Source: a virus (lineage: Duplodnaviria; Caudoviricetes). From it: a stretch of DNA of 64,000 nucleotides. Within the stretch, counting starts at the first letter, position 1. The number at the start of each line of letters is the position of its first letter. The translations under genes and the position numbers were made by a program. Where the stretch lies: the IMG/VR virus record IMGVR_UViG_3300000439_000004, positions 32,001 to 96,000 of that record. One strand, 5' to 3'. The notes under the pieces are model-generated. The model saw nothing but the letters and a program-made list of their open reading frames with translations, did not search any database and was not told where the DNA came from. Positions 2,954 to 6,905 of the stretch are shown piece by piece.

Positions 2954-3058
2954 GTAAATTTATTTGAAAAATAAAGTGTTTTTTAAAAAATATTTTTTTT
3001 TCTTTTTATTTCTTAATTTTTACAAAGATAAGAAAACTTTTTGAGTCTACCAAATATT

Positions 3059-3244
3059 TTATAAAATATTTTTTTCTTTTGAAATTTCTATTGATTCATG
3101 AAGACTTTCATAATGTTCACAGCCTAATATATATTTCACATCATTTAAAGTTACTTTAAAACCAATGACCATTCTTTTAGCTTGGTTAGTATCTGTTATT
3201 AAATAAACAATATCACCAATTTCAAATTCATTATGAATAACCAT
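3059..3244 (-). CDS. Hypothetical protein (FEIGDIVY SH3/KOW-like start)
   Basis: 61 aa ORF. Confidence 0.5.
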   Translation of the reverse strand: MVIHNEFEIGDIVYLITDTNQAKRMVIGFKVTLNDVKYILGCEHYESLHESIEISKEKNIL

Positions 3245-3257
3245 ATTAATTAATTTG

Positions 3258-3328
3258 TATTTCGTATCAGATTCGAACTGACAACTAATCTTTTAGAGAG
3301 ATGTATTTTACCGTTAAACTAACGAAAC
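3258..3328 (-). tRNA. Amber suppressor tRNA (anticodon CTA)
   Basis: GTTTCGT/ACGAAAT acceptor, D-loop GG, anticodon arm ATCT-CTCTAAA-AGAT, T-loop TTCGAAT. Confidence 0.75.
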
Positions 3329-3438
3329 AATTATATTACAAATATATGAAAACTTTTTCATATAACCAAATATTTTAAAACTGAACCTCGAACCTCGAAC
3401 TTTTATAGAAATGGGTATATTTATTATAAATACATATA

Positions 3439-4056
3439 ATGGAAAATTTAGAAGAAATCGTGAAATTAAGTTATAATAGTAAAAATTGTTTAGAAAATTT
3501 AGGGTGGAATATAAATGGTTCCAACTATGTAAAGTTAAAAAAATTAATTGAAAAATTTAAAATAAATACTGAACATTTTAAAACACAAGCTCAATTATCA
3601 AGAGAATATACTAATAAATCAAAAAACATAAATCGTTTTACTGTAAATTCTGATTTTAGTAGAGGTTGTGTTAAAAAACACATTATTAAAAATAAATTAT
3701 TACCTTATGAATGTTTAATGTGTAAAAATGACGGTAATTGGATGGGTAAAAATTTTTCATTAATTCTTGATCATATTAATGGTGTTAATAACGATAATAG
3801 ATTAGAAAATTTAAGATTTTTATGCCCAAACTGTAATGCAACATTAGATACACATTGTGGTGGTAATGTTAAAAATACTGATAACAAAAAAATATTAAAA
3901 ACACCAGAAGAAATAATCAAATTTTCTAGGAGATTAGTAGAACGTCCAGATTATAAAACACTAGTTAATGAAATAAATACACTAGGTTATTGTGGAACGG
4001 GAAGAAAATATGGTGTTAGTGATAATGCAATCAGAAAATGGATAAAAAGTTATTAA
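3439..4056 (+). CDS. HNH homing endonuclease
   Basis: CxxC...LDHINGVNNDNRLENLRFLCPNC plus C-terminal HTH (YGVSDNAIRKW). Confidence 0.9.
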   Translation: MENLEEIVKLSYNSKNCLENLGWNINGSNYVKLKKLIEKFKINTEHFKTQAQLSREYTNKSKNINRFTVNSDFSRGCVKKHIIKNKLLPYECLMCKNDGNWMGKNFSLILDHINGVNNDNRLENLRFLCPNCNATLDTHCGGNVKNTDNKKILKTPEEIIKFSRRLVERPDYKTLVNEINTLGYCGTGRKYGVSDNAIRKWIKSY

Positions 4057-4267
4057 AATCCTACTCTATCGTTGAGTTAACATGCCATTTTAAAAAATTA
4101 TCAAAGAACTGTTAAAAATTATGTAGTTTTATGACGTATTCAGTTTTTGTCACAGGTCTCATTCACTTTACTACATGTACCTTGATATTTGACAGAATAA
4201 ACTCCATAGGAGATTTGTCCTCATCCGTCTTTCATTGGTATTATGGACACCAGTACTGAAATTCCAG

Positions 4268-4339
4268 AGGTAAAGAAAGGATTCGAACCTTTGTAATAAG
4301 AACGTCTGTTCCCACACCTAACCACTCGGTCACTTTACC
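4268..4339 (-). ncRNA. tRNA-like RNA (Cys-like body) with non-canonical anticodon arm
   Basis: GGTAAAG/CTTTACC acceptor, U73, normal D and T arms; anticodon arm TGGGAAC-AGAC-GTTCTTA lacks a 7-nt loop. Confidence 0.6.
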
Positions 4340-4343
4340 ATAA

Positions 4344-4586
4344 AGTTCTTTAAAATATCTGTCACTCCAAGAATGTGAATAAACCTTAGTACGCTCCCTA
4401 CTTTGGGGAGAAAGGACTTCCTTCCAATGTACCTAAGTACAATCTAAGGTCGTTTATCTGTCCACAAACATCTCTCTTGGTTGAGATAACCCCGATGTGT
4501 TAATTCACAGTTACACCAACGGTCACCGAAGCCTATTATGTTGGTCAAGATTATTGTTTGTTTATCAGCAGATATTTTAAAGAACT
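4344..4586 (-). ncRNA. About 243-nt structured ncRNA closed by a perfect 18-bp stem
   Basis: AGTTCTTTAAAATATCTG/CAGATATTTTAAAGAACT termini, several internal helices, TATATTTG promoter immediately upstream. Confidence 0.7.
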
Positions 4587-4603
4587 GATGCAAATATAAA
4601 GAC

Positions 4604-4924
4604 TTAATTTTGATTCACCAAATCTTTTTTATTTATTTTTTTCTTGAACTCATAACCACGTTCAACACGTGCTTTATGTATTCTTCTTTTTTCCCTCTTC
4701 TCAAATTGATATGAGGTTAATAACTCGGAACTTTCTTTATGTAATTCCATTATTTTATCAAAGATCTCAATCTTTTCTTTTTCAGTTAATTCTTTTTTAT
4801 ACTTCCAACGTTGATAAGTTTTTTTATCCATGTTAGGTTCTAATAATTTATGAACTGAGTTTGAAAAACTACATTTAATTACTGTTGTTGGGTTTTGTTT
4901 TGACCCGTTGTTTTTTTGTGACAT
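4604..4924 (-). CDS. Hypothetical protein
   Basis: 106 aa ORF in operon. Confidence 0.55.
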   Translation of the reverse strand: MSQKNNGSKQNPTTVIKCSFSNSVHKLLEPNMDKKTYQRWKYKKELTEKEKIEIFDKIMELHKESSELLTSYQFEKREKRRIHKARVERGYEFKKKINKKDLVNQN

Positions 4925-4945
4925 TTTATTAATTTTTTTATTTTA

Positions 4946-5206
4946 TTAATACAACCTTGCGATTGTCTGATTATTCTCATCCGTTTCTAAAACCAAATTT
5001 GCTTTAAATTTGATACTCCCCTTTGTATGAGTGTTATTTGGAGTTTCTTTTGTTGAGAAACCAACACCGGGTTCTACAACTACGTGATGGACATAATGAG
5101 TGTCACCCCTACATTTAATTACCCACATTGGAATGGTAGGGTCTTCCAAATGTTTCTTGTTGAAGTGAAATACAATTTCACATTTCTTTTCTGTAATCTA
5201 CATCAT
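4946..5206 (-). CDS. Phage protein with an in-frame TAG at codon 3 (MM*ITEKKCEIVFHFNKKHLEDPTIPMW...)
   Basis: ATG ATG TAG ATT at 5206-5195, in frame with the track ORF 4946..5149, which has only a TTG start. Confidence 0.7.
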
Positions 5207-5217
5207 AACTGTTTGTT

Positions 5218-5559
5218 TTATTGTTTATTAAAATTTTTTAATGATAAAGGTAATGACGATGTTAATCTCCTTGTTTGTTCCGTTTCAAGGAAACAAATTG
5301 AAGTCAATTGATTGTCAATATCGGGTTCTGTGAAATAAGACACAGGAACGCCAATATCTTGAATTTTTGTTAATAAATTACTTAATTTTTCTTCTGAATC
5401 AATGGATAACGATATTAAAAAATTGTTATTCCATTTCTTAGCCAAATCATGATGTTCAAGTATGAACTGTGATACTGAATGACAACTTTGTGCCATTTGA
5501 TAACCTGGTGTCATATCACCTCTGGTTATTACTACAAGTTTATTAATCTAATGTGTCAT
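5218..5559 (-). CDS. Peptidyl-tRNA hydrolase 2 (Pth2)-like protein with an in-frame TAG at codon 4
   Basis: MTH*INKLVVITRGDMTPGYQMAQSCH...FTEPDIDNQLTSI: Pth2-like N-terminal strand, AQxxH and E-P-D motifs. Confidence 0.7.
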
Positions 5560-5611
5560 ATATAATAAGTATTACGTTGCAAAGATAAATCTAATTTTTC
5601 AAATAAAAAAA

Positions 5612-5860
5612 TTATTTATAAACTTTTTTATTATTTTTTTTCTTACTATCACGTTGTTTTTCGGAAATAGTTTTCTCAACTTTTTTCTCAACAAGTACTG
5701 GTTCAACTACAACCGGTTTAATAGTTTTTTTGTACTCAGATTTTGATACATATGACCAAGATCCACTTCTTACAGATAAATCTGCATCCACATCATTTAC
5801 CCTTTTAATTTCACCAAGTTCAACATTCTTGCCAACTCTAACTGATTTAATACACTTCAT
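5612..5860 (-). CDS. Hypothetical basic protein
   Basis: 82 aa ORF with upstream promoter. Confidence 0.6.
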   Translation of the reverse strand: MKCIKSVRVGKNVELGEIKRVNDVDADLSVRSGSWSYVSKSEYKKTIKPVVVEPVLVEKKVEKTISEKQRDSKKKNNKKVYK

Positions 5861-5951
5861 AATAATTTTTTTATTGTTAATTAATAATAGAATGCAAATA
5901 TAAGTGATATTATTGACATTATCAAATATTTATTGTAATAAATAATTTATT

Positions 5952-6905
5952 ATGATAATAAATGAATCAAAATTAAATGAATTAATAAGTGAGGAGATAA
6001 GTTTAGTTAAATCTGAAAAATTAAATTTAATTAAAGAATGTACAATTGCTGCAGTTAGACTTGATAATGGTATTATTTTGGCAAAAAATAGAGATAGAGG
6101 TTATGTTGCCAAAATGAAAGTAGTTCATGAAGTTGTTGATGATGTGGAAATGGTATATTGGATTGATGAGGATACCGATTGGTCTGAAGGTATGAATGAA
6201 TATGGTATTGGTATTGTTAATTCAAGTCTATTGGTTAGACAAGATGAAAAAGAAAGTGATAAAATAGAAAAAAAACAAAAGGATGGAAAAAATTATGTTT
6301 TTAAAGATCCAAAATTAGACGATACTGAAAATAGAAAGAAAGCGACTGATGGTTTTAAAATTAGAACAGCATTAAAACATAAAGAAATAAAAAATGTTGT
6401 TAAGTCGGTTATTTCATTCTCCGGTGATGATAAAAAAAATGTTGGTATTAAAGGTCAAACAATGGTTGGAAATAATAAAAACATTTATAATATTGAAGCA
6501 ACTAGTAAAGACACTTCTGTTGTAACAAAATTAAAAGAAGATAAAAAAGTCATGGTTAGAACAAATCATGGTATAGCACATGAAGTTGCTGGTTATACAA
6601 CAGGTATTAAAAAGAAATCTTCTCATATGAGAATGTTATTTGCAAAAGAATATTTGAAAAGTTGTAAAACAGATAGTGAAGTGTTTGAAAAAATGAGACA
6701 ACAATATCATAAAAACCCATTCTTCAATCCATATAGAGAAAAAAATGAACATAACATGCAAACTGTTGGTCAGATAATGTTAAATCTTGATAAAAAAGAA
6801 GTAACAATAAGGATGGATAAAAATATGGGGAAATTTCTAGGTATAGATAATAGACTACCAAATGGTTATGAACCGAAAATAAAAATAAATGTTATAAAAG
6901 AATAA
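5952..6905 (+). CDS. Ntn-hydrolase (peptidase C45/choloylglycine hydrolase-like) with N-terminal propeptide
   Basis: CTIAAV...AKNRDR...EGMNEYG...RTNH motifs. Confidence 0.7.
   Translation: MIINESKLNELISEEISLVKSEKLNLIKECTIAAVRLDNGIILAKNRDRGYVAKMKVVHEVVDDVEMVYWIDEDTDWSEGMNEYGIGIVNSSLLVRQDEKESDKIEKKQKDGKNYVFKDPKLDDTENRKKATDGFKIRTALKHKEIKNVVKSVISFSGDDKKNVGIKGQTMVGNNKNIYNIEATSKDTSVVTKLKEDKKVMVRTNHGIAHEVAGYTTGIKKKSSHMRMLFAKEYLKSCKTDSEVFEKMRQQYHKNPFFNPYREKNEHNMQTVGQIMLNLDKKEVTIRMDKNMGKFLGIDNRLPNGYEPKIKINVIKE

Follow-up and report, generated by a model that had tools for sequence, protein, structure and literature searches.

Two neighbouring small genes of a large phage that otherwise uses the standard genetic code each carry an in-frame UAG stop a few codons after the start, and the phage encodes its own UAG-reading tRNA nearby. 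The same arrangement is found in hundreds of distant phages, and it is thus probable that the two proteins are made only when this tRNA overrides the stop. One of the genes (gene A) encodes a Pth2-like protein, and the other (gene B) encodes an 86-aa protein of no known family.

The analyzed stretch of DNA, hereafter “the window”, comprises 64,000 nucleotides and corresponds to bases 32001-96000 of a 162,180-bp phage-like contig (IMG/VR record IMGVR_UViG_3300000439_000004) with 27.6% G+C. It carries a major head protein, a head protease and 22 tRNA genes. An initial annotation, made from the sequence alone, described the two early in-frame TAG codons. That observation is confirmed by our analysis, whereas its interpretation is supported only in part, as described below.

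Early in-frame stops in two adjacent genes

On the minus strand gene A begins with ATG ACA CAT TAG ATT and gene B begins with ATG ATG TAG ATT (Table 1). Both TAG codons are in frame with the downstream open reading frames. Under the standard bacterial code (code 11) both frames can start only later, gene A at an ATG and gene B at a TTG.

Table 1. Positions of the features in the window and in the related loci (L numbers designate the loci retrieved in this study)
Sequence	Positions	Strand	Feature
Window	5218-5559	-	Gene A, Pth2-like, 113 codons counted from the ATG at 5559-5557; first five codons at 5559-5545
Window	5548-5550	-	TAG of gene A (codon 4), followed by ATT at 5547-5545
Window	5514	-	First code-11 start (ATG) of gene A
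Window	4946-5206	-	Gene B, 86 codons; first four codons at 5206-5195
Window	5198-5200	-	TAG of gene B (codon 3), followed by ATT at 5197-5195
Window	5149	-	First code-11 start (TTG) of gene B
Window	4268-4339	-	tRNA-like element with U73 and a 4-nt loop in place of an anticodon loop
Window	3439-4056	+	HNH homing-endonuclease gene between the tRNA-like element and tRNA(CUA)
Window	3257-3328	-	tRNA(CUA), about 1.6 kb downstream of the gated genes (3258-3328 in the initial annotation)
Window	8386		Rejected third candidate, ATG ACT TAG TAT
L021	1859-2644		Homing-endonuclease gene with a copied gated 5' end
L038, L040	near 2350		Homing-endonuclease genes with a copied gated 5' end
L169 (Rhizobium phage RHph_I1_18, MN988519)	2468-2700		Gene-B homologue with an amber gate
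L170 (Agrobacterium phage Atu_ph07, MF403008); L205	1420-1540 (L170)		Pth2-like gene with an early in-frame TGA; tRNA(UCA) near 430.7 kb of the genome
L168 (Mycobacterium phage IkeLoa)	2474-2482		ATG TAG GTG
L087 (Mycobacterium phage Myrna)	2974-2982		GTG TAG GTG

Within this one genome the bare pattern is not beyond chance. A scan for ATG, up to five codons, a stop and then at least 50 open codons gave 11 cases for TAG, 27 for TAA and 9 for TGA. However, only the two genes described here combine the pattern with conserved N-terminal sequence missing from the code-11 frame. A third candidate (Table 1) was rejected, because this frame has its own ATG seven codons later and its PHROG profile fits that start.

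The genome otherwise uses code 11, in agreement with the statement of the initial annotation that the recoding is local. Long genes, including structural ones, are intact in code 11. Reading TAG as sense changed almost nothing: the number of frames of at least 300 codons was 53 under both codes, and the coverage per 10 kb was nearly unchanged. Among 118 frames of at least 150 codons, the closing stop is TAA in 101, TGA in 9 and TAG in 7.

Conserved residues between the TAG and the first canonical start

Residues that form the predicted first beta-strand of each protein lie between the TAG and the first code-11 start. Gene A read through the TAG matches the Pfam family PTH2 (PF01981) with 24.6 bits against a cut-off of 23; residues 7-78 are aligned, and residue 7 corresponds to profile position 2. 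A profile built from 23 relatives hits the Pth2 structure 2zv3 in the PDB with an E-value of 3e-9, and 1rzw, 1q7s, 1wn2 and 1xty more weakly. In the best hit the residue just after the gate region is aligned to residue 2 of the crystal chain. The structural model of gene A (pLDDT 93.5) places strand 1 at post-gate residues 4-9, upstream of the code-11 ATG. In a Foldseek search (E-value 8e-7) the model superposes on MJ0051, AF2095 and Bit1 (2zv3, 3erj and 1q7s) at TM 0.75-0.79 over about 110 columns. The predicted Pth2 alpha/beta fold therefore includes the N-terminal strand. In the sequence alignment alone, the GKGK-type loop of Pth2 is replaced by PGYQ, while an acidic residue (E/D) of the conserved motif F-x-E-P-D aligns with the Asp of R-D-A-G.

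Gene B is modeled as an all-beta protein (pLDDT 91.3). Its first strand (post-gate residues 6-13) holds the invariant FHFNK motif and lies before the code-11 TTG. No relative of known function or fold was detected for gene B. Searches against Pfam, PHROGs and PDB profiles found nothing for the short or long forms of the family, Foldseek against the PDB gave nothing below an E-value of 0.5, and VIA-align over 48,161 chains gave a best Z of 3.7. An atlas search returned only viral hypothetical proteins, and an atlas feature search with the long form returned eukaryotic pectate lyases at 0.94, which we treat as noise.

Conservation of the gate in related phages

Whether the TAG codons are private to this assembly had been named beforehand as a test of the observation, and they are not. 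An independent assembly that is 99% identical to the window (L001/L002) carries both TAGs, and the TAG is conserved across about 145 diverged loci.

Gene B has 281 relatives in IMG/VR. Among the best 80 of them (54-76% identity), 67 start with ATG, 1-4 codons and TAG, and the TAG lies 9-14 codons (10 in most) before FHFNK. The next codon is ATT in 55 loci, ATC in 4, ATA in 3, GTA in 2, and GTT, AAC and ACT in one each. The 13 loci without a TAG start with M-L-N/K-I or similar, collinear with M-x-TAG-I. The protein sequence downstream is strongly conserved, with 19-21 invariant residues. Database proteins that begin with MKQI or MQTE are gene calls made with TAG=Q, and many other calls start at the internal Met of IPMW, which is the mark of a frame cut by the TAG.

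The Pth2-like gene has 269 relatives. Of 79 loci examined, 78 have TAG and one has TAA directly before the conserved N-terminal strand. Many of these frames contain no ATG at all after the gate. In L141, L150 and L156 the TAG nearest the conserved motif lies inside the protein (near the conserved W-x-x-x-S-N-Y-L stretch) and not at the start; these phages may use TAG more widely. In Prevotella phage Lak-B7 (L088) the Pth2-like gene shows no early stop, but a tRNA with a UUA anticodon lies about 600 nt upstream.

The same gate is present in huge phages (LR756504, LR745206 and LR756501) and in cultured rhizobiophages. In Sinorhizobium phage Phosso the Pth2-like gene reads ATG AAG TAT TAG GTT, while its annotation starts at an internal ATG. 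In Rhizobium phage RHph_I1_18 gene B reads ATG TAG AAC and is not annotated in GenBank; a tRNA annotated as tRNA-Pyl(cta) lies 30 nt downstream. Homing-endonuclease genes (HNH; GIY-YIG-like) in L021, L038 and L040 begin with a copy of the gated 5' end of the neighbouring Pth2-like gene or gene B (ATG..TAG ATT plus the first residues), and seem to borrow the amber-gated start.

The codons around the gate and the number of codons before it (1-4) vary freely. After the stop, relatives have ATA, ATC, GTT, GTA, ACA, ACT, ACG, AAC, AGC, GGC or CTT as well as ATT, so the ATT shared by the two genes of the window is not a fixed part of the signal, contrary to the initial annotation. The base after the stop is nearly always a purine, a context that favours suppressor tRNAs in E. 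coli.

The ribosome-binding signal tracks the ATG. Where relatives show AAGGAG-type sites, the G enrichment lies 9-13 nt before the ATG, i.e., 18-22 nt before the codon after the stop, and the distance to the ATG is kept whatever the number of codons before the stop. The leaders in the window itself have no visible Shine-Dalgarno site, so the start-site argument rests on the relatives. A scan of window positions 3000-6000 for promoters and terminators gave counts equal to those in shuffled sequence.

A linked tRNA with the matching anticodon

The tRNA(CUA) of the window was found with ARAGORN and matches the Rfam tRNA family with 59 bits. It is the only stop-reading tRNA of the 162-kb genome. 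A tRNA(CUA) lies on the same strand within 3 kb in 59 of 80 gene-B loci and within 4 kb in 69 of 79 Pth2-like loci. In one clade it ends only 15-30 nt before the ribosome-binding site of the gated gene. The other 21 gene-B and 10 Pth2-like loci show no tRNA(CUA) within the retrieved flank; it may lie further away, as in L161, a Pth2-like locus.

The label “tRNA-Pyl” given by ARAGORN follows from the anticodon alone. The tRNAPyl shape has a very small D-loop, a 3-nt variable loop and a 6-bp anticodon stem, whereas the tRNA of the window has a 7-nt D-loop, a 4-5-nt variable loop and a 5-bp anticodon stem. Fifty distinct tRNA(CUA) sequences keep a cloverleaf and a YU-CUA-A loop. The nearest isotype among phage tRNAs is Trp for 21 of the 50, and the loop CUCUAAA equals a Trp loop with C35 changed to U, but the window's own tRNA is nearest to Val or Gln at low scores.

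In relatives of the window the order Pth2-like gene, gene B, (tRNA-Cys), tRNA(CUA) is kept. An Rfam search of the window region found only two tRNA-type elements, the tRNA(CUA) and the tRNA-like element (44 bits; not called by ARAGORN). The latter has U73 as in tRNA-Cys and sits where relatives have a normal tRNA-Cys(GCA) directly before tRNA(CUA); its membership in the module is uncertain. The HNH gene that sits between the tRNA-like element and the tRNA(CUA) explains why the tRNA is 1.6 kb from the gated genes here but 0.6-0.9 kb away in relatives. In L056, L072 and L081 phage-encoded tmRNA genes lie next to the tRNA(CUA) and gene B.

The two exceptions to TAG that we followed have the matching anticodon. 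The one TAA-gated Pth2-like locus (L151; L216; IMG/VR 3300035208_009193) lies in a 676-kb phage that has a tRNA(UUA) and no tRNA(CUA) among 29 anticodon types seen. Its relative L161 has the same leader, ATGAAAGAAACATAGATT, with TAG, and carries a tRNA(CUA) and no tRNA(UUA). The tRNA(UUA) is not a one-step derivative of the tRNA(CUA) of this relative, as they are only about 58% alike. Agrobacterium phage Atu_ph07 has ATG ATT GGC GAA CAC TTT TGA ATT before its Pth2-like strand, and carries a tRNA(UCA) and no tRNA(CUA) among 26 types; GenBank annotates this gene from an internal ATG. Phosso, with a TAG gate, has two tRNA(CUA) genes. Stop and anticodon therefore go together, which is hard to explain unless the tRNA decodes the gate.

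The mycobacteriophages IkeLoa and Myrna are ambiguous. Their annotated peptidyl-tRNA hydrolase genes start at a GTG directly preceded by ATG TAG (IkeLoa) or GTG TAG (Myrna), with a tRNA(cta) 130-250 nt downstream. This GTG is well spaced from the ribosome-binding site, and there the gene may be made without suppression.

Association of the two genes

Where gene B has lost its own TAG, the neighbouring Pth2-like gene keeps its gate. A search of 1.84 billion cluster representatives found only 149 members of the gene-B family, which come in three forms: alone, with a C-terminal extension of about 100 residues and an acidic tail, or with an N-terminal extension. Two contigs encode in-frame fusions of a Pth2-like part followed by gene B under table 11, each with a single gate (L202, ATG AAA AGG TAG ATT; L203, ATG TTG TAG ATT). 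In L203 a tRNA(CUA) lies 230 nt upstream. This is Rosetta-stone evidence for a joint function, and the two proteins probably work together.

Discussion

We are rather confident in the following reading, which rests on sequence and structure prediction alone: the window holds a three-part translational switch. Ribosomes would start both genes at the upstream ATG and meet UAG after one to three sense codons. Only if the phage's own tRNA(CUA) is made, charged and beats the release factor would translation continue into the protein; otherwise only a di- to tetrapeptide would be released. The gate sits at the extreme N-terminus (codons 2-5), so in this view the inserted residue lies outside the fold and its identity does not matter, and a failed attempt costs almost nothing. 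This placement makes sense for a purely regulatory stop. TAG also ends seven long frames of this genome, so a strong suppressor would have side effects. The two products most likely act together; our guess is a catalytic part plus a part that binds the substrate or the ribosome, acting on a tRNA-linked substrate.

The analysis itself establishes the gate, its conservation and linkage to the tRNA, the agreement of stop and anticodon, the standard code elsewhere in the genome, the fusions and, by profile and model, the Pth2 fold. What we infer is that read-through actually occurs, that the tRNA is expressed and charged, which amino acid is inserted (the scaffold of the suppressors looks most like tRNA-Trp, so Trp or Gln), the joint action and activity of the two proteins, including any hydrolysis of peptidyl-tRNA, and the purpose of the gating.

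Several claims of the initial annotation are thus supported: a deliberate stop-codon gate, restoration of the first Pth2 strand by read-through, the start of gene B at the upstream ATG, and the tRNA as the likely reader. Its alternative, that the proteins are made when RF1 is limiting, is not supported as worded: where the gate is TAA or TGA in relatives, the genome carries the matching UUA or UCA suppressor tRNA instead of CUA, which points to the tRNA, not to RF1, as the key. Its proposals that the enzyme is made when a peptidyl-tRNA-releasing enzyme would help, and that the logic resembles prfB autoregulation, remain hypotheses.

Among other explanations, a leaky stop read by host tRNAs, or a sensor of RF1 shortage, with the phage tRNA serving some other purpose, is unlikely. 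UAG followed by A is a weak termination context in E. coli, and TAG is read by RF1 alone. However, this does not explain the tight physical linkage of tRNA(CUA) to the gated genes in about 130 loci, or why gates that are TAA (read by both release factors) or TGA (read by RF2) come with UUA or UCA tRNAs. No other use for the tRNA is visible in this genome.

Termination at a mini-ORF followed by reinitiation at the adjacent codon is about equally unlikely. ATT, ATA or ATC follows the stop in most loci, and AUU is a rare, weak and IF3-sensitive start codon (as in infC). However, in a minority of loci the stop is followed by GTA, GTT, ACA, ACT, ACG, AAC, AGC, GGC or CTT, none of which can start translation, and the I/V/T/L variation looks like selection on a translated residue. 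The stop is TAG in about 145 of 147 loci although TAA would serve as well, is one transition away and is the common stop in this genome. Reinitiation explains neither the linked tRNA(CUA) nor the TAA/UUA and TGA/UCA matches.

Genome-wide reassignment of TAG (code 15), as in crAss-like and Lak phages, is very unlikely: the phage-encoded tRNA(CUA), the low G+C and the rarity of TAG as a stop would agree with it, but TAG still closes long frames, and reading it as sense lengthens no long gene and does not increase the number of long frames. Broken genes or an assembly error, which two short genes with premature stops might suggest, are excluded by the conservation.

Phage suppressor tRNAs combined with in-frame stops as a brake on translation have been described for code-15 phages, in which TAG is read as Gln (bioRxiv 10.1101/2021.08.26.457843, PMC9523058). 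There too a phage brings its own tRNA(CUA) into a standard-code host, and in-frame TAGs are proposed to hold back certain genes until the tRNA is active. In those phages tens to hundreds of TAGs are scattered through late, structural and lysis genes, and TAG is lost as a stop. Here the code is otherwise standard, there is one TAG per gene, within the first few codons of two small non-structural genes that are conserved partners of the tRNA itself, the same small set of genes is gated across hundreds of phages, and stop and anticodon are interchangeable as a pair. Xanthomonas phage XacN1 (PMC5852040) represents standard-code jumbo phages with large tRNA sets, tRNA(CUA) genes and a peptidyl-tRNA hydrolase gene; its authors read through the amber stops at gene ends and reported that they could not identify target genes, while the targets proposed here are at gene starts. 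In full-text searches of the literature, necessarily incomplete, we found no description of early-stop-gated Pth2-like genes.

In prfB (RF2) autoregulation an early in-frame stop in a translation-factor gene also makes synthesis depend on how that stop is decoded. However, prfB needs a +1 frameshift at UGA and its product acts on that same stop, while here the conserved protein continues in the same frame directly after the TAG, the proposed reader is a dedicated tRNA, and feedback by the product is only a hypothesis. The bldA tRNA-Leu(UAA) and the TTA codons of Streptomyces likewise form a switch from a dedicated tRNA and a codon confined to a handful of genes, but bldA reads a rare sense codon in a cellular genome, whereas here the codon is a stop, the tRNA is a suppressor, and the module is viral and compact.

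The link to a peptidyl-tRNA-hydrolase fold, the tmRNA genes beside the tRNA in some loci, and the recurrence of Pth2-like genes next to suppressor tRNAs even in mycobacteriophages suggest a role in termination or in ribosome and tRNA rescue. A further possibility, which we regard as unlikely but not excluded, is that the module is a self-setting regulator of stop-codon read-through. The Pth2-like/gene-B enzyme would act on the suppressor tRNA itself, either stripping its amino acid or peptide, or rescuing ribosomes that the tRNA has carried past stops. Because synthesis of the enzyme needs that tRNA, the infected cell would settle at a fixed level of read-through. This would be a prfB-like feedback loop built from a tRNA and an enzyme, portable between phages and able to switch between UAG, UAA and UGA.

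The gate explains systematic annotation errors: genes are missed or cut to an internal Met in RHph_I1_18, Phosso, Atu_ph07 and many metagenomic gene calls. It ties an uncharacterised, very conserved phage protein (gene B) to a Pth2-like enzyme and to stop-codon decoding. If read-through occurs as inferred, the gated genes would be a natural target for the suppressor tRNAs that standard-code phages carry, a question that the authors of the XacN1 study left explicitly open (PMC5852040). A single stop codon at the very start of a gene, paired with a private tRNA, would then be a widespread and conserved way of controlling translation in phages, and it may be the small first step from which genome-wide stop-codon reassignment in phages grows.
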